The notes beneath the pieces are model-generated. The model made no database searches. It was not told the origin of the DNA and saw only the letters and a program-made list of their open reading frames with translations. Shown piece by piece: positions 29,937-35,922 of a stretch of 64,000 bases of DNA. The translations under genes and the position numbers were made by a program. Source of the stretch: Actinomycetaceae bacterium (GTDB lineage Bacteria > Actinomycetota > Actinomycetes > Actinomycetales > Actinomycetaceae); the NCBI GenBank assembly GCA_030537735.1, contig JAUNVG010000001.1, forward strand, positions 238,160-302,159, given 5' to 3'. Each line of letters begins with the position of its first letter. Positions within the stretch are counted from its first letter, which is position 1.

Positions 29937-32471
29937 CTAGGTCAGGGCCTGCGCTTTATTTACTGATTCCAGTATCTTAGTGCCACTCATTTGGCGGGCT
30001 TTGGACGCTGCGATCACTGTCAGGATCACCGAGCTTACGCCCCAAAGCAGCAGTCGGAATATGACTGAGGTGAGGGAGATGATCTCTCCACCTAGGACGG
30101 TGTGCGACAGTCCCGAAGACAGGATCGACAGTGGCACCACGCCTTCAATGGCGTGGAAAGCTTCGGGGGCAGTTTCAATCGGGATGACCCCGCCCAGTGA
30201 CACCACTTGTATGACTAGGAATAGCAGTGCCAGTAGGCGACCCAACCGAGCTCCCGCCACCGCCAGCATGGCTTGGTTTACGGCGGCGAAGACCGCTACC
30301 CCTAGGGCCACTAGGAAGGTGGTGGCGATGAGGTTTACCGGTTTGACGCCCATGGCCGTTGCCACCACGATCACGCCTAGCGCTTGTAGCGCACCGATCG
30401 CGAGGGCGGGCCAGAGGGAACGCCACGCTACCTGCCAAGAGGTGTGGGTAGAGGCCAGCAGTCGCCTGCGCAGTCCGGGCATAACCAGGTAGGCCCCGAA
30501 TGCTCCTATCCACAATACGATGGCGGCCGCCCAGGGGAAGACCACGTTCGCTAGTGCGGTGGCCTGGTTTATACGGTCATCTTGTGCGCGCACCGGGATA
30601 GCGCCCATTTTGACGATGCGGGTGCGTTCTGCATCGGTGTATGAGGGCACTTGCTGGGCGCCGTCTTCCAGTTCACTGGCAAAACGGGTGGTTCCTTTGA
30701 TTAGTTCCATTACACCTGCGTCGAGGGCGGATGCTCCTTGCGCTAGGGTGCTGCCACCTTCGGTTAGCTGCCCAGCCCCGTCAGCTGCCTGCGAAATACC
30801 CCCTGCTAACTCATCGGCTCCCGATGAGAGGGCTTGAGTTCCAGCCATTAGTTGGTTGATGCCGGATGCGAGTTGGCGTGATCCTCCAACCAAGGAAGGG
30901 TTAGTTCCGTCTCCGTTCAACGCGGTGTTGACTGTGTTTATGCCGTCTTTGAGCTGGGAGATCCCCTGGGCTAGGCCGGGTGAATCAGGTTTACCGTTTA
31001 CTCCCAGGTTTAGTTCTTGGGCACCTGCGGCCAGTTGATTGGCGCCGTCGCGAAGCTCGGTGAGTTTAGCGTCTATACCTTTTATGCCTCCTGCGGCTTG
31101 CAGCCGGTCGGTGAACTCTTCGATCTGGCGGCTAATGCGCAGCAAGTCATCCTTTAACTGTTCAACTCCCAGATCGCTAAGAGCCTGGTTCAACCGTGCC
31201 AGCACTTGATCTATTTCGGGATTGGAAGTCGGCCATTGCGCTATCACTGATTCCACGGTGGCGATGGCTGCGCGCAGTTGCTGACAGTCCTCAGGGCCGG
31301 TGGCTAAGGCTTCACATTCAGTTAGCGCTGCCTGCAGCTGGGGCAGTAGGCCGACATTATTGGCGTCTCCTTCTAACTGTCCACGCAGGGCCAGCAGTAG
31401 GCCGTTGGAGTCAGCTAGCGCTGCTTCCAATCGTTCAAGATCGGCTTGGATCTGGGCAGTGCTGGGGATCTGCTCTAAGTAGTCTTCGGGCAGGAGTTGT
31501 TCTAGTTCCATCAGGACTTTGGTGACTTTTTGCAAGCTGGTGGTGAGTGTTCCCACGCCTTCGCCTAGCTGGGCGCTTCCTTCAGCCAGGGCTTTAGTGC
31601 CTTCGGCTAGTCCGCCCGGGCCGTTAACTCCGGCGTCGATAGCCGATACCCCGCCTACCAGGCCGGGTTGCTGTTTCGTTCCAGCTACCCCTTGACCCAG
31701 TTGTGCCAGGCCACCTGCTAGCCTGTTTGCCCCGGCTTGTAGTTGTCCTACACCAGAGTTAAGTTCTCCAGCGCCCCCCGCCAGCGCTTGAGCGCCGTCA
31801 CTGGCCTCACCTAATCCGGAGGACAGTTCAGTTAACCCTGATGATAGTTGCCATGCTCCCGACGATAAGGCGGAGGAGCCTTGCCCTAAGCGTTTGGCGC
31901 CGTCATCTAGCTGGGCGGCTCCGTCAGCTGCTTGACCGAGTTGATCTTTCATCTCGTTGAATCCCAGGTATATCTGGTCAAGCATTCTTTCGGTAAATTC
32001 TGACCCCATCGAGTGGGCGGCAGCGTCGGCAATCTGTTGGGAAATCATTCCCATGATTTCGGAAGACGCATCGTTGGAAGTCACTGTTATGAGGGCGGCC
32101 TTAGCGTCTGTAGTGCCAATGGTGACCAGGTTTTCGGAGAATTTTTCCGGGATGGTGATTACCGCTTGGTATTTACCTTCAGCCAGGCCGGTGCGAGCGT
32201 TTTCTTCCTTCACCAAATGCCAGTTAAGGTTGGTGCGCACATCTTCCTTGGGGTACATGAGGCCGGAGGCCAGTTGGCGTCCTAGGGGCACCATTTGTTT
32301 AGTGCCGTTTAGTTCCATTTCCACGCCTTTATCGAGGTTCACGATAGCGGCAGGTATCTGGTCGAAGCGGTCGGTGCGCCCGGAGGTTGACCAAATAGTT
32401 AAGGCTGCGGCAAGGACCGGTAGCAGTAATGTGGCGATAATGGCTCGCCAGTCACGTAGTGATAAGTTCAT
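29937..32471 (-). CDS. YhgE/Pip-domain membrane protein (ABC-2-type C-terminal membrane domain)
   Basis: N-terminal TM helix. About 450-aa extracellular Ala/Gly/Leu/Gln-rich repeat region (motifs such as GAxxLxxG). C-terminal bundle of about 5 TM helices. ATGA overlap with the upstream MMPL gene. Confidence 0.75.
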   Translation of the reverse strand: MNLSLRDWRAIIATLLLPVLAAALTIWSTSGRTDRFDQIPAAIVNLDKGVEMELNGTKQMVPLGRQLASGLMYPKEDVRTNLNWHLVKEENARTGLAEGKYQAVITIPEKFSENLVTIGTTDAKAALITVTSNDASSEIMGMISQQIADAAAHSMGSEFTERMLDQIYLGFNEMKDQLGQAADGAAQLDDGAKRLGQGSSALSSGAWQLSSGLTELSSGLGEASDGAQALAGGAGELNSGVGQLQAGANRLAGGLAQLGQGVAGTKQQPGLVGGVSAIDAGVNGPGGLAEGTKALAEGSAQLGEGVGTLTTSLQKVTKVLMELEQLLPEDYLEQIPSTAQIQADLERLEAALADSNGLLLALRGQLEGDANNVGLLPQLQAALTECEALATGPEDCQQLRAAIATVESVIAQWPTSNPEIDQVLARLNQALSDLGVEQLKDDLLRISRQIEEFTDRLQAAGGIKGIDAKLTELRDGANQLAAGAQELNLGVNGKPDSPGLAQGISQLKDGINTVNTALNGDGTNPSLVGGSRQLASGINQLMAGTQALSSGADELAGGISQAADGAGQLTEGGSTLAQGASALDAGVMELIKGTTRFASELEDGAQQVPSYTDAERTRIVKMGAIPVRAQDDRINQATALANVVFPWAAAIVLWIGAFGAYLVMPGLRRRLLASTHTSWQVAWRSLWPALAIGALQALGVIVVATAMGVKPVNLIATTFLVALGVAVFAAVNQAMLAVAGARLGRLLALLFLVIQVVSLGGVIPIETAPEAFHAIEGVVPLSILSSGLSHTVLGGEIISLTSVIFRLLLWGVSSVILTVIAASKARQMSGTKILESVNKAQALT

Positions 32472-35197
32472 CGGGCTGTCGCCTCCTGCGGTAGAGCTGA
32501 GGGCACAAAATATTCATCCTCAGGGGCGTCGAATTGCCAGCGGCATGCTGGTGTCAAGATTGCGGCGCTGCCGTTTCGCAATTCGCGTTCGATTAGTTCA
32601 GCTTCTTTACGGTTTATGGGCCTATCAATGAGGTATAGCTTTTGCTTGTTTTGCCGTTTTTTCCGTCCGCCAAGGGGTGTGTATGGAAGGTCTGCTCTTT
32701 GTTCCAGTAGGGGAGTGCGGGCTACTACACGGCCGCTTTCATCGGCCGTTGAGGTGTCGAAGACAAATAGGGTGCCTTCATCCAGGCGGGCACGCCCGCC
32801 GAATGCCAGCAGCAGTGCGCGAGTGGCTCCGCGTGCACCATCCAGGCGCAGTATCTGCCCGGGCCGCACCGCGACGGTGGCGTTATCAACTATCTTCGTT
32901 GCCCGGCCACCGATGGTGACCTCATGGGCACGTGCTACCACTTCGCCGTACTGTTTTTGCCAATCTAGATGCCTGAATCTTTCATCCATTCCCATACCTT
33001 CAACGTCAAAGGTAGGCAGCATCCGGTCGAGCCATGGCGGAATGTACCAGGCCCTATCGCCCAGGATTTGCAGCACCGCAGGCACCAGGGTCATGCGCAC
33101 TAAGAAGGCATCTACTGCCACACCGACGGCGAGGCCGAAGGCAATGGGTTGGACGTAGAAGGACCCGCCCGGGATAAAGCCGGAGAACACCGAAATCATG
33201 ATCAGTGCCGCCACCACTACCACGGTGGCTGAGGCGTTGAAACCGGTGTGGATGGATTCGCGGGCTTTACCTGAGTGCACGTAGTCTTCGCGAATGCGTG
33301 AAACTAGGAACACTTCGTAGTCCATCGCCAGGCCAAACAGCACGCCCATAAGAATGATGGGCATGAAGGAGATAACGGGCCCGACCTGGCCGATCAGTAG
33401 CGCATCATTAGCCCAGCCTTTGATGAACACTAGGGTAGTGGTACCAAAGGCCGCTCCCACCGAAAACAGGTAGCCAACGGTGGCTTTTATCGGCACCCAG
33501 AGGGAGCGGAAGACGATGGTGAGCAAAACTAGCGATAGCCCCACAACGATGATCCCGAAAGGCAGTAGGGCTTTAAACAGTTGTTCAGATACGTCGATGG
33601 CTACCGCTGCTGAACCGGTGACCATGGTGTTGGAGATTCCGTAGGTTTGTTCCCATTCGGGGGCGGCATTTCTGAGCGCATGCACGAGGTTTTCGGTGGA
33701 GGCAGCTTCGGGGCCTTCGCGTGGAATTATGGCAACTATCCCCAGGTCGGCTTTCCGGTTAGGAGTCGATAGTTGGATATGGTCCACATCTTTGATCTTG
33801 CTGATGTCATCAGCCAGGTCGTCCATAAGTTTCAGGGGATCTTCAGAGGTAATGATGTCGGTGATTACCAGCAGTGGACCGTTTGCGCCAGCTCCGAAGT
33901 TTTCTTCCACCAGGTCGTAGGTTTGGCGCCCCATGGTGGATTCGTCTTCTACGCCGTTATCTGGCAGTGCCAGGCGCAGGGCATAGGACGGCACTGTCAT
34001 AACCGCCACTAAGGCGGTTACCGCGAGGATCGTTAGCCACGGGTGGGAAGTGGTGACCGACACCCACCAGGCTGCCGGGGTGCGCCGGCGCGGTGCTTTT
34101 TCAGGTTGTTCCTGTAGGTCGGCAGATAGTATTTCTGCTTCCTCTTCGGGGGCGTCAGTTTGCTTCTTGCGTCGCGATTTTTTCGGTTTCGGGCGTAGCC
34201 TGTCACCCAGTACCGCCAGCAGCGCCGGGAGGCCGGTCACCGCGATAAGTGCGGCAATAGCGACGGCGAGTGCAGCGCACATACCCATAACCGACAGGAA
34301 GGGAATGTTGGCAACGATCAGAGCAAGGAGGGCGATCACTACCGTTGTGCCCGCAAATAGTACCGCGCCGCCAGAGGTGGCGATGGCGCGGGGAATGGAT
34401 TCTGCCACTGTGTATCCGTGTCGGAGCTGGTCGCGGTGGCGTGAAACTATGAATAGTGCGTAGTCGATTCCCACAGCCAGCCCCAGCATGATCGCCAGTG
34501 TCGGGGTGGTGGTGGAGATAGGAACGACTGCGGCGATTAGCATTACGATCACCATCGCTATTGCCACTCCGGTGATGGCGGAGATAATAGGTACAGAGGC
34601 GGCAATAAACGATCCGAAGGTGAGTGCCAGTACCACTAGAGCCAAGGCAACGCCGGCGGCTTCCGTGGCAGATAGGGGTACTTCCGTGGTTGACATGATG
34701 TTGCCACCCACGTGTACGTCCAGGCCTGCTTCACTGGCTTCGCTGGCTGTCTTTACGACCTCATCCACCACCTTTTGGTCGATGGAGTCCAGCCCGAATT
34801 CGAACTGTACTTGCCCCAGGGCGTAGCGTTGGTTGTCGGAAACCAGGGGGTCCATGAGGCTATCGTCAAAGGGATTGGAAGAAGTCAGTACGCTTTCAAT
34901 TTCGCCGACCTTCGACATGGTTTCTTCGATGGTTTGCTGGTAGTCGTAGATGTTCTTTCCCTCATCTACGCCGAAGACGATTTGTCCGGAAGTTCCGGAT
35001 AGTTCTTCGAAGCGTTCTTCCAGCACGTCCAGTCCTTCTTGGCCTTCGGTGCCGGGGATAGTGAAGTCGTTCGTGAGTTGCCCACCGACAGTAAACATGG
35101 CAACTACCGTGATTACGAGCATTCCTATCCAGGCAGCGAGGACGGCACGGGCGTGAGAGACCGTGTAGTTGGCTATACGGTAAAGAACAGATGACAC
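32468..35197 (-). CDS. MMPL-family (RND superfamily) transporter with extra C-terminal cytoplasmic domain
   Basis: Two 6-TM blocks, each with a periplasmic domain, and a basic linker KPKKSRRKKQ. The canonical MMPL end is ...WYIPPWLDRMLP, followed by 180 extra aa. Start set at GTG 35197 behind GGAGAA; the ORF track gives 35293. Confidence 0.8.
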   Translation of the reverse strand: MSSVLYRIANYTVSHARAVLAAWIGMLVITVVAMFTVGGQLTNDFTIPGTEGQEGLDVLEERFEELSGTSGQIVFGVDEGKNIYDYQQTIEETMSKVGEIESVLTSSNPFDDSLMDPLVSDNQRYALGQVQFEFGLDSIDQKVVDEVVKTASEASEAGLDVHVGGNIMSTTEVPLSATEAAGVALALVVLALTFGSFIAASVPIISAITGVAIAMVIVMLIAAVVPISTTTPTLAIMLGLAVGIDYALFIVSRHRDQLRHGYTVAESIPRAIATSGGAVLFAGTTVVIALLALIVANIPFLSVMGMCAALAVAIAALIAVTGLPALLAVLGDRLRPKPKKSRRKKQTDAPEEEAEILSADLQEQPEKAPRRRTPAAWWVSVTTSHPWLTILAVTALVAVMTVPSYALRLALPDNGVEDESTMGRQTYDLVEENFGAGANGPLLVITDIITSEDPLKLMDDLADDISKIKDVDHIQLSTPNRKADLGIVAIIPREGPEAASTENLVHALRNAAPEWEQTYGISNTMVTGSAAVAIDVSEQLFKALLPFGIIVVGLSLVLLTIVFRSLWVPIKATVGYLFSVGAAFGTTTLVFIKGWANDALLIGQVGPVISFMPIILMGVLFGLAMDYEVFLVSRIREDYVHSGKARESIHTGFNASATVVVVAALIMISVFSGFIPGGSFYVQPIAFGLAVGVAVDAFLVRMTLVPAVLQILGDRAWYIPPWLDRMLPTFDVEGMGMDERFRHLDWQKQYGEVVARAHEVTIGGRATKIVDNATVAVRPGQILRLDGARGATRALLLAFGGRARLDEGTLFVFDTSTADESGRVVARTPLLEQRADLPYTPLGGRKKRQNKQKLYLIDRPINRKEAELIERELRNGSAAILTPACRWQFDAPEDEYFVPSALPQEATAR

Positions 35198-35217
35198 GAG
35201 TTCTCCATAAACTTCTA

Positions 35218-35271
35218 ATACATAAGCGTATTCGATACTTCTATGTATCGTTCCAATACTATAATGTATCG
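35218..35271. promoter_or_regulatory. Divergent promoter with candidate TetR operator
   Basis: AT-rich island. Imperfect 31-nt palindrome ATACATAagcGTATtcgATACttcTATGTAT (35218-35248). Direct repeat ATGTATCG (35244 and 35264). Perfect TATAAT at 35260-35265, upstream of tetR. Confidence 0.4.
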
Positions 35272-35307
35272 AGGTAACTACAAACCCGTTCAACGAAGAG
35301 AGCCAAG

Positions 35308-35922
35308 ATGGACCTGAGACTTAAACGGCGGCGCGAACACACGCGCGAGCGGATTGTGGCAGCAGCCGCCAAAGTATTTGCCAATAAGGGTGTGGCAGGT
35401 GCAACAGTGGACGACTTGTCACAGGCCGCTGGCTTCACCCGCGGGGCGTTTTATTCGAATTTCGCCACTAAAGAAGAGGTCTTCACCGAAACCCTGACCA
35501 CCTTCACCCAGGAGTTGGTCACCAGGATCTATGACGAGATAGAAATTCTCGATAGGGAAGTGGCCCCCGAAACTGCCATGCGCGCAATCCTGCGAGCCAC
35601 CCGCCCCCAGGGGCAGCTGTGGGTGCTACTGGAAGCAGAAGGTATGCGCCAAGCCCTGGTGAACGATTCTATCCGGGATGTATATCTTAAGAATCGCGAT
35701 TACCTAGCGCGGGCGCTGGTGCACGTGCTGTCCACTTCGGCTACTGATTTTCATCACCAAAGCCTCACCTGGGAGCGCACCGCTGAAGAGTTGCAAAACC
35801 TAGCTGAACTAATCCTTGCAACTTACGCCCAGGTTTTGATGCTAGATCACCTGCAGGGAGAAGACTCCACCGAACGCCTGTTGGATCTACTGCAGACACT
35901 CATTTTTCCCTTGAACGATTAG
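35308..35922 (+). CDS. TetR/AcrR-family transcriptional regulator
   Basis: HTH motif RERIVAAAAKVFANKGVAGATVDDLSQAAGFTRGAFYSNFATKEE. Divergent from the MMPL operon. Confidence 0.85.
   Translation: MDLRLKRRREHTRERIVAAAAKVFANKGVAGATVDDLSQAAGFTRGAFYSNFATKEEVFTETLTTFTQELVTRIYDEIEILDREVAPETAMRAILRATRPQGQLWVLLEAEGMRQALVNDSIRDVYLKNRDYLARALVHVLSTSATDFHHQSLTWERTAEELQNLAELILATYAQVLMLDHLQGEDSTERLLDLLQTLIFPLND

Follow-up and report, generated by a model that had tools for sequence, protein, structure and literature searches.

In this Gleimia genome, a divergently transcribed TetR gene faces an operon in which the gene for an MMPL transporter of the RND superfamily overlaps a downstream gene for a YhgE/Pip protein, and the cytoplasmic tail of the MMPL descends from the nucleotide-binding domain (NBD) of an ABC transporter. 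We consider it rather probable that the three genes make up one conserved functional module, in which the tail docks the MMPL on Pip. The tail has lost the catalytic motifs of its ancestor, both proton-relay pairs of the pump are intact, the linkage of the MMPL and Pip genes is conserved among actinobacteria, and the fusion belongs to a single clade of Pips. There is good support for the MMPL and Pip working as a single physical machine: the genes are conserved as neighbours and the presence of a tail predicts a Pip downstream, as a tail-mediated MMPL-Pip complex would predict.

Gene structure of the locus

The operon lies on the minus strand, with the MMPL gene (909 aa) at 32468-35197 followed by the YhgE/Pip gene (844 aa) at 29937-32471. 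The stop codon of the former and the start codon of the latter share the sequence ATGA at 32468-32471 (minus strand), which the initial annotation had reported and which is read directly from the sequence, and an AGGAGG Shine-Dalgarno sequence for Pip is located within the end of the MMPL coding region (32482-32487, minus strand). The MMPL start codon is GTG, with GGAG just before it. A longer MMPL ORF beginning with TTG at 35293 was rejected, since it enters the AT-rich control region and disagrees with the lengths of the homologues. The TetR-family regulator (PF00440, E 3e-12) is encoded on the plus strand at 35308-35922, divergent from the operon. Between them, the control region (35198-35307) holds imperfect palindromes, which an inverted-repeat search placed at 35218-35231/35235-35248 and 35218-35235/35252-35269, with arms of 14 nt and 18 nt and a complementarity of 78-79%. 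These repeats are the probable operator of TetR.

Proteins were assigned to the MMPL family when two half-domains (12 TM helices and two extracytoplasmic loops) exceeded the Pfam gathering threshold. The MMPL matched PF03176 with 281 bits (cut-off, 20.5; E 1.2e-83) in two stretches that correspond to the two halves, and it is the sole MMPL in the genome. In MMPL/RND transporters, the Asp-Tyr pairs of the proton relay are located in TM4 and TM10. Both pairs are intact here, D245/Y246 in GIDYALF and D626/Y627 in MDYEVF, and the motifs are retained in 63 of 64 full-length MMPL orthologues. The closest NCBIfam models, MmpL3 and actII, both scored far under their cut-offs; identity as an MmpL3 orthologue (NF052608) was rejected (191 bits; cut-off, 1400). 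The Actinomycetaceae are not known to produce mycolates.

The N-terminal domain of Pip matched TIGR03061 with 113.1 bits (cut-off, 96.15), and its C-terminal domain, for which the TIGR03062 cut-off is 102.2, reached 105.7 bits when the genome was scanned and 101.5 bits by hmmscan. The xxxLxxG heptads occupy 11 stretches (TIGR03057, E 6e-25), and the ABC-2 family PF12698 was matched at E 5e-13. The AF2 model (pLDDT 79) consists of an N-terminal TM helix, a membrane-proximal alpha/beta domain, a long helical stalk with single helices of 103 residues (138-240) and 70 residues (538-607), and a C-terminal TM bundle. In Foldseek superpositions at 3.5-6 Å, about 200-225 columns of the bundle could be aligned with ABCG25, ABCG5/8, ABCH, KpsM, and Wzm, although the E-values for the whole model are weak. 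The match for the membrane-proximal domain is 3cni, which comes from an ABC-2 transporter. PF12698, TIGR03057, and the model thus bear out an ABC-2-like C-terminal membrane domain and a repeat-rich extracellular region, both of which the initial annotation had named as features of YhgE/Pip proteins. Of the two components of a functional ABC-2 exporter, Pip has the ABC-2-fold TM domain and lacks a competent, dedicated NBD.

The MMPL tail as a degenerate NBD

The final 175 residues of the MMPL (735-909; 32471-32995, minus strand) are a real but degenerate ABC NBD. The homology is significant only in profile and fold searches. When the single tail sequence was used as the query, Pfam gave no match at E<=10, PF00005 included; NCBIfam gave ABC matches at sub-threshold values (E 0.007-0.17); phmmer against 1.84 billion representatives gave six matches, all of them fragments or MMPLs; and a word-index search gave five proteins. 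PF00005 does match 11 of 64 orthologous tails at E<=0.01. Against PDB, a profile of 11 Gleimia tails found ABC NBDs in 35 of its 36 matches (best E 0.003), and a profile of 64 tails found 299 sequences at E<=0.01, the best 60 of which are all ABC NBDs. The best match of the larger profile is ABCA3 (E 1.2e-15), and its top matches include further NBDs of the ABC-2/type V class, namely ABCA4, ABCA7, and 1vpl (TM0544; E 1.4e-9). The membrane domain of Pip belongs to the same transporter class.

The tail is a folded and conserved domain. Its AF2 model has a pLDDT of 73, with a core above 90, and 24 positions are invariant across the 11 Gleimia tails. Searching PDB with this model (Foldseek) yielded 117 matches at E<=1e-3 with a TMq of about 0.5; the best 50 of the 117 are ABC NBDs or entries that contain an ABC ATPase, and the mechanotransmission ATPases FtsE, MacB, and LolD are among the matches.

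The motifs of catalysis have been lost. The Walker A region reads GARGATRAL, without the lysine and one residue shorter than GxxGxGK[ST]; the Walker B region reads LYLIDRP and lacks the catalytic glutamate of hhhhDE; the switch region lacks the histidine of the H-loop. The region of the signature motif (LSGGQ) is deleted together with the helical subdomain, and in the longest orthologous tails the signature is already degenerate (LSRLQ, LSSLL). Across 66 fused tails, the GK[ST] of Walker A is retained in 12, none of them from Gleimia. From its motifs, the Gleimia tail can presumably no longer bind or hydrolyze ATP. In genuine ABC transporters, the helical subdomain contributes to the groove that receives the coupling helix; since this subdomain is deleted in the tail, docking in the canonical NBD-TMD manner is uncertain here.

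A genome profile scan found no PF00005 match in the window (the whole 64-kb stretch analyzed, 238160-302159 on contig C10) and 69 matches elsewhere in the genome. With the NBD of the tail dead, the view that the locus is devoid of a functional ABC ATPase gene holds, and so does its corollary that the degenerate tail, whose best profile and Foldseek matches in PDB are ABC NBDs or entries containing an ABC ATPase, is the sole ABC-like module there.

Conservation and origin of the linkage

Orthologous loci were gathered with a 7-sequence alignment. An MMPL gene lies directly upstream of Pip at 67 of 80 loci, in at least nine actinobacterial families, and stop and start codons overlap at 55 of these 67 (by 4 nt in 50 and by 1 nt in 5). 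The overlap was seen in the Actinomycetaceae, Dermabacteraceae, Microbacteriaceae, Promicromonosporaceae, Brevibacteriaceae, Dermatophilaceae, Propionibacteriaceae, Nocardioidaceae, and others, and all 12 Gleimia loci have the ATGA form. A TetR homologue occupies the same divergent position at about 57 of the 67 loci. As a converse test, MMPLs were taken as the starting point in 150 evenly sampled genomes, in which Pip was found downstream of 47 of 50 tail-bearing MMPLs compared with 2 of 38 tail-less ones (Fisher p = 9e-19); in-frame stops are present in the three tail-bearing cases without a downstream Pip. The comparative-genomics check suggested with the initial annotation has therefore come out in favor of the pairing: the adjacency is far above chance and is no mere coincidence of this locus. 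Pairing does not strictly depend on the tail, because one overlapping MMPL-Pip pair (L043) has no detectable tail, and the module is dispensable, because 3 of 15 Gleimia genomes are without the tail. A natural read-through ORF was observed in one genome (G162, locus L093).

Pips also occur without an MMPL. Of 20 MMPL-less Pip paralogues, 13 are immediately preceded by a gene for a free-standing tail homologue, and these proteins score 1e-19 to 1e-27 on the tail profile, better than on a genuine ABC profile. These homologues have no adjoining MMPL and lack the signature motif, the catalytic glutamate, and the histidine of the H-loop; they share with the long fused tails the motifs GPxGSGKTSLLL.LAGRM, VAERL, hhhhD[DN].D.LR, and TV.A.C. 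The corresponding modules of other Actinomycetales (L096-L115) resemble the present one in the NBD-like family, its position directly upstream of Pip, and often a TetR nearby, and differ in that the domain is unfused and in most cases still has its Walker A motif and helical subdomain. No partner gene was found for the two further Pip paralogues of the same genome (contig C8) or at the Pip loci of the Micrococcaceae. An ABC gene upstream of an MMPL-less Pip in Citricoccus was considered as the ATPase of that Pip and rejected, as it is MetN (with a NIL domain) beside MetI and is unrelated.

In a tree of the Pips, those linked to an MMPL group in a single clade (SH-aLRT 94), and those linked to a free NBD group in a second one (92). 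Tails are longest and least degenerate at the base of the MMPL-linked clade, in members from the Dermatophilaceae and Nocardioidaceae. Since paralogous Pips carry a free-standing, non-catalytic homologue, the tail appears to be Pip's own pseudo-ATPase partner, which was fused once to the MMPL and then reduced; and since these homologues are themselves coupled to Pips, the domain family is tied to Pip rather than to the MMPL. The homologues are already non-catalytic without any MMPL, indicating that the loss of ATP hydrolysis predates the fusion or is independent of it. The loss of nucleotide binding was late and not linked to the fusion, as the fused tails that retain GK[ST] indicate.

Taken as a pseudoenzyme series, this runs from a free, non-catalytic ABC-like subunit to its fusion with a member of another transporter superfamily, after which the helical subdomain and the P-loop were lost in steps. 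Throughout the series, the domain has evidently been retained for a structural reason.

Proposed mechanism and alternatives

We propose that the MMPL is a working RND-type exporter, driven by the proton-motive force, which would extract a substrate, presumably lipophilic, from the membrane. The ancestor of the tail was probably an ABC-type nucleotide-binding subunit that served the ABC-2-like membrane domain of Pip as its cognate partner in the cytoplasm, and a single ancestral event would have joined it to the C-terminus of the MMPL encoded just upstream. Reduction would have been stepwise, with the helical subdomain lost first and Walker A next, and the role left to the tail is most likely structural, namely docking the MMPL to the cytoplasmic face of Pip. 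Translational coupling would provide the MMPL and Pip in the fixed proportion of one complex, with the Pip stalk, about 15 nm by helix length, as its putative wall-spanning extracytoplasmic part. The divergent TetR probably represses the operon until a hydrophobic inducer arrives.

The initial annotation went further and had the proton-motive force replace ATP as the energy source of the complex: the proton-driven cycle of the MMPL would be passed through the dead NBD to the membrane domain and stalk of Pip. The complex itself agrees with the coupling, the conserved adjacency, and the dead tail as the only NBD-like module, whereas the replacement of ATP appears doubtful. It would fit an NBD that is dead while the proton relay is intact, the strict linkage of tail and Pip, and the Foldseek matches of the tail to the mechanotransmission ATPases. 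It would also fit one reciprocal case, that of Agilicoccus (L049), in which both D-Y pairs are gone from the MMPL, and the tail is the most ABC-like of all and retains GPEGSGKT; however, this is a single case. Against it, signature motif, catalytic glutamate, and H-loop are already missing from the unfused partners of paralogous Pips, which have no MMPL, and Walker A persists in 12 of the 66 fused tails. Many Pips, moreover, have no partner at all, so that a need of Pip for an energizer is not demonstrable. We hold it equally doubtful that the locus represents a hitherto unrecognized class of hybrid envelope machine, in which a proton-driven RND pump is firmly joined to an ABC-2-type partner via the former ATPase of the latter, and the cycle of the pump is relayed, in the manner of mechanotransmission, to a wall-spanning coiled-coil stalk of about 15 nm. 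If that were true, the long-sought cellular role of YhgE/Pip would be to export lipophilic molecules, or hand them over, across the wall of Gram-positive bacteria.

Somewhat less likely still is that the MMPL and Pip act independently and are merely co-regulated, as members of an envelope-stress or efflux regulon, with the tail serving as an NBD-derived domain for regulation or oligomerization of the MMPL. The C-terminal cytoplasmic domain of MmpL3 has regulatory or localization roles, the L043 pair does without a tail, and Pips elsewhere work without a partner, all of which would suit such an arrangement. It accounts poorly for a nearly perfect association between tail and Pip (p about 1e-18), for stop/start overlap at 55 of 67 loci, and for free-standing NBD-like homologues that are coupled to Pips.

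YhgE/Pip proteins are common across Gram-positive bacteria; the relatives Pip, PIP_EF, and YueB are phage receptors, EsaA is a subunit of the type VIIb secretion system (T7SSb), and we know of no physiological role for members beyond phage adsorption and T7SSb. These relatives, and a weak match to the EsaA model TIGR03929 (E 2e-12), would speak for Pip being here chiefly a phage receptor or an EsaA/YueB-like T7SSb component beside an incidental MMPL. This is very improbable, since the TIGR03929 match reaches 47 bits (cut-off, 122), the WXG100 genes of the genome are found only on contigs C26 and C19 and the locus has no T7SS context, the adjacency is kept across at least nine families, and use by phages is an exploitation of Pip rather than its cellular function. 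Identity as EsaA was accordingly rejected.

The docking module that we favor has partial counterparts among known systems. With MmpL3/MmpL11-type MMPLs (HAE2) and with Gram-positive MMPL pumps controlled by a divergent TetR, such as FarE/FarR of S. aureus, it shares the two PF03176 halves, Asp-Tyr pairs in both TM4 and TM10, a C-terminal extension in the cytoplasm, a divergent TetR, and a presumed export of lipids or lipophiles. In contrast, the tail of MmpL3 is disordered or unrelated to the NBD-derived extension described here, and the present MMPL is paired with a YhgE/Pip gene. Pip has the N-terminal TM helix, xxxLxxG helical ectodomain, and C-terminal ABC-2-like bundle of the YhgE/Pip/YueB/EsaA family (the PIP family, TCDB 9.B.74), and differs in its non-T7SS locus and in belonging to an actinobacterial clade preceded by a pseudo-NBD MMPL. 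The ABC-2/type V exporters (ABCA, ABCG, Wzm-Wzt, DrrAB, TM0544) have the fold of its TM bundle, their NBDs are the class closest to the MMPL tail, and ABCA transporters likewise carry a large ectodomain between TM1 and TM2; unlike them, the present system has no catalytic NBD, and the remnant of one is fused to a different transporter. In the export of mycobacterial PDIM, MmpL7 and DrrABC are encoded together and both are needed to bring the lipid to the surface. There too an MMPL pump is co-encoded with an ABC-2-type system, but as separate proteins and with DrrA as an ordinary ATPase, whereas here the NBD is dead and covalently attached to the MMPL.

For the cellular function of YhgE/Pip, its strictly conserved coupling to a proton-driven pump for lipids or drugs offers a concrete and testable handle. 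In host-associated bacteria of the Actinomycetaceae and Dermabacteraceae, such a module, presumably under TetR control, may contribute to phage susceptibility and to the tolerance of host lipids, bile, or fatty acids.

The architecture of an MMPL-pseudo-NBD with Pip is new relative to the searchable full-text literature, in which neither the MMPL-YhgE/Pip pairing nor an MMPL-NBD fusion was found described. The sole trace of the pairing in that literature is a co-induction table for Saccharopolyspora hirsuta, in which cholesterol induces adjacent YhgE/Pip and MMPL genes 3.8- and 3.3-fold (PMC9782250), as would suit a joint module.

The mmpL-pip locus and its gene content

Two long open reading frames (ORFs) were read on the minus strand of the window. 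The best start of the first is the GTG at 35197, with GGAG 6 nt before it, giving a 909-aa MMPL/RND-type transporter (PF03176 in two halves, E 1.2e-83). The TTG at 35293 chosen by a mechanical ORF call was rejected, since it would cross the AT-rich divergent control region and the closest homologues are 897-939 aa long. The second ORF (29937-32471, minus strand) encodes an 844-aa YhgE/Pip protein (hereafter Pip), which matches TIGR03061, TIGR03062 and PF12698 (ABC2_membrane_3). The overlap of the MMPL stop with the Pip start described in the initial annotation was seen as ATGA at 32468-32471 on the minus strand, with AGGAGG placed 10 nt before the Pip ATG. Because a convergent MerR gene stands downstream of Pip, the operon consists of two genes. 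A TetR gene (35308-35922) is divergent from MMPL, and the AT-rich 110-nt spacer between them contains imperfect palindromes, ATACATAAGCGTAT / ATACTTCTATGTAT (35218-35269), which are likely, as predicted from their sequence, to be the TetR operator overlapping both promoters.

A profile scan of the 2.2-Mb genome gave 69 PF00005 matches, none of them within the 64-kb window (C10:238160-302159), and the proposed lack of an ABC ATPase gene at the locus was thereby upheld. The genome has only one MMPL gene. Two more YhgE/Pip paralogues, of 903 aa and about 700 aa, stand in tandem outside the window at G000:C8:26430-31290; their neighbours were checked for an MMPL, an ABC ATPase and an NBD-like or tail-like gene, and none was adjacent. 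In the Pip tree both are placed well away from the MMPL-linked clade.

The pump belongs to the MMPL family without being an orthologue of MmpL3, the nearest NCBIfam models, MmpL3 and actII, both being far below cut-offs. Likewise, Pip is a bona fide YhgE/Pip rather than EsaA (TIGR03929 below cut-off), and the WXG100 genes of the genome are on other contigs than the window. The nearest functional analogies to the MMPL and Pip pair are mycobacterial PDIM export, which requires MmpL7 and the ABC-2 system DrrABC jointly, and MMPL pumps controlled by TetR, for example FarE/FarR. A full-text literature search found no account of MMPL-YhgE/Pip pairing or of an MMPL-NBD fusion.

Conservation of the pairing in actinobacteria

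In Gleimia (Actinomycetaceae), the genus to which the names carried by close homologues assign this genome, the C-terminal tail of MMPL was found in 12/15 genomes, and in 12/12 of these Pip is the next gene, with stop and start overlapping or abutting. A Pip-side survey was then made of 80 loci from named genomes, collected from Pip. MMPL was directly upstream of Pip in 67/80 loci, with a detectable tail in 66 of the 67; the two genes overlap by 4 nt in 50 of these loci and by 1 nt in 5, and a homologous TetR gene was divergent upstream in about 57. The carriers belong to Actinomycetaceae, Dermabacteraceae, Microbacteriaceae, Promicromonosporaceae, Brevibacteriaceae, Dermatophilaceae, Propionibacteriaceae and Nocardioidaceae. 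Pip loci without MMPL were mostly from Micrococcaceae (Rothia, Citricoccus, Galactobacter), where Pip has only a co-directional TetR gene before it. A Citricoccus ABC gene upstream of Pip was considered as Pip's ATPase and rejected, as it is MetN. In Dermabacteraceae bacterium TAE3-ERU5 (L043:5483-8029), an 848-aa MMPL without a detectable tail overlaps Pip by 17 nt; here the tail is wholly lost and the MMPL-Pip pair is kept.

For the MMPL-side survey, 150 genomes were sampled evenly across the order. Pip was downstream of 47/50 MMPL matches reaching into the tail, the other three having in-frame stops, and of only 2/38 tail-less matches (Fisher p = 9e-19). In a class-wide sample, tail-bearing matches outside the order occurred in one further family only, which is consistent with the Propionibacteriales names among the Pip-side loci; families in both of these samples are coded, and the family names come from the Pip-side survey. 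The comparison of adjacency and tail presence thus showed that the pairing is conserved and that the tail predicts Pip. That tetR, MMPL and Pip form one conserved three-gene module is firmly supported.

Nature and origin of the MMPL tail

The tail comprises residues 735-909, C-terminal to the last TM helix. Searched alone, the window's tail had no match in Pfam and only sub-threshold ABC models in NCBIfam. When a profile of 11 Gleimia tails was compared with the PDB, ABC nucleotide-binding domains (NBDs) accounted for 35/36 matches, all in register (best 1vpl, E 0.003). The wider profile, built on 64 tails of many families, matched 299 PDB sequences at E<=0.01, of which the best 60 were all ABC NBDs, led by ABCA3 (1.2e-15) and including 1vpl (1.4e-9), then ABCA4, ABCA7, MlaF and CFTR; the alignments span the Walker A half and the Walker B/switch half, with a gap at the expected helical subdomain. 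The AF2 model of the tail (pLDDT 73, core >90) gave 117 Foldseek matches to the PDB at E<=1e-3, the best 50 being ABC NBDs or entries with an ABC ATPase. In the motif alignment, Walker A is GARGATRAL, without Lys and short by one residue; the Q-loop, helical subdomain, LSGGQ signature and H-loop His are absent; and Walker B is LYLIDRP, without the catalytic Glu. The tail therefore has an ABC fold, yet it fails in every catalytic respect. Both its NBD ancestry and the complete loss of catalytic motifs in the window's tail are firmly supported, and its designation as a fused, dead NBD was correct.

As a comparison set, 20 Pip paralogue loci without MMPL were taken. In 13/20, a free-standing ORF of 220-350 aa lies directly upstream on the same strand. 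The tail profile matched ten of the 13 with E 1e-19 to 1e-27 and two with 1e-12 and 1e-4; one matched the ABC profile only. Wherever both profiles matched, that of the tail always outscored the genuine ABC ATPase profile. The free ORFs and the longest fused tails have in common the motifs GPxGSGKTSLLL.LAGRM, VAERL, QPW..PW, hhhhD[DN].D.LR, DR..AW and TV.A.C. Most free proteins have Walker A, and all lack the SGG signature, catalytic Glu and H-loop His; judged by these motifs, they would be nucleotide-binding pseudo-ATPases at best.

Maximum-likelihood phylogeny of the Pip N-terminal domain places every MMPL-linked Pip in one clade (SH-aLRT 94), whose single unlabelled member is a contig-edge case, and the Pips linked to a free NBD in another, distinct one (SH-aLRT 92). 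In basal MMPL-linked members (Dermatophilaceae, Nocardioidaceae) the tail measures roughly 270-320 aa and includes both Walker A and the helical subdomain; in Propionibacteriaceae the helical subdomain is gone and GK[ST] is often retained; in most other lineages, including all Gleimia, both are gone. The simplest history is that Pip's own pseudo-NBD was fused once to the upstream MMPL and then progressively reduced. A specific evolutionary tie between the NBD-like family and YhgE/Pip is firmly supported. Five genomes of one family (f10: G058, G079, G134, G151, G168) have both the MMPL-fused pseudo-NBD with Pip and a free pseudo-NBD with a Pip paralogue, and the two versions therefore coexist rather than replace each other.

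Transport modules and their possible coupling

Both Asp-Tyr relay pairs of the window MMPL are intact (D245/Y246, D626/Y627), and the pairs are kept in 63/64 orthologues; judging from these residues, the protein should work as a proton-driven pump. Pip contains eleven xxxLxxG heptad stretches, and its model (66-sequence alignment, pLDDT 79) comprises one N-terminal TM helix, a membrane-proximal alpha/beta domain, a helical stalk and a C-terminal TM bundle. Single stalk helices are 103 and 70 residues long, roughly 15 nm and 10 nm at the standard 0.15 nm per residue, and owing to the stalk, E-values of whole-model fold searches are weak. The TM bundle can be superposed, over about 200-225 columns at 3.5-6 A, on those of ABCG25, ABCG5/8, ABCH-9C, KpsM and Wzm; for the proximal domain the match is 3cni, a domain from a Thermotoga ABC-2 transporter. 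PF12698, the heptad stretches and the modelled bundle agree with the initial description of an ABC-2-like C-terminal membrane domain and a large repeat-rich ectodomain. The only cysteines of Pip, C386 and C396 (31284-31316, TECEALATGPEDCQQL), are 10 residues apart in the distal ectodomain; this C-x9-C pair is present in the consensus across orthologues and probably closes a loop there by a disulfide.

By topology, the MMPL C-terminus, the short Pip N-terminus and the Pip loops are all cytoplasmic, so contact between tail and Pip would be geometrically possible. We consider it reasonably probable that the tail is retained as a docking piece joining MMPL and Pip into one complex, which would be controlled by TetR and handle a lipophilic substrate. 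Neighbouring YhgE/Pip and MMPL genes of Saccharopolyspora hirsuta are induced together by cholesterol (PMC9782250). The further proposal, that Pip came to be powered by proton-motive force instead of ATP, may hold but is weakened, given that the unfused partners of Pip paralogues are already non-catalytic without any MMPL and that many Pips have no partner whatever. Two single cases hint at an energetic or physical link between MMPL and Pip. The Agilicoccus flavus MMPL (L049:4612-7929) has lost both relay pairs (TM4 GLGASL, TM10 AVAAQL) and bears the most ABC-like tail of all (GPEGSGKT, E 2e-14 against the genuine ABC profile), the reciprocal of the Gleimia state. At L093:5881-8310 (G162:C2), the MMPL tail continues into Pip in a single open frame uninterrupted by a stop, possibly a natural fusion; the same MMPL is frameshifted near its 5' end, sequencing error or a pseudogene being the alternatives.
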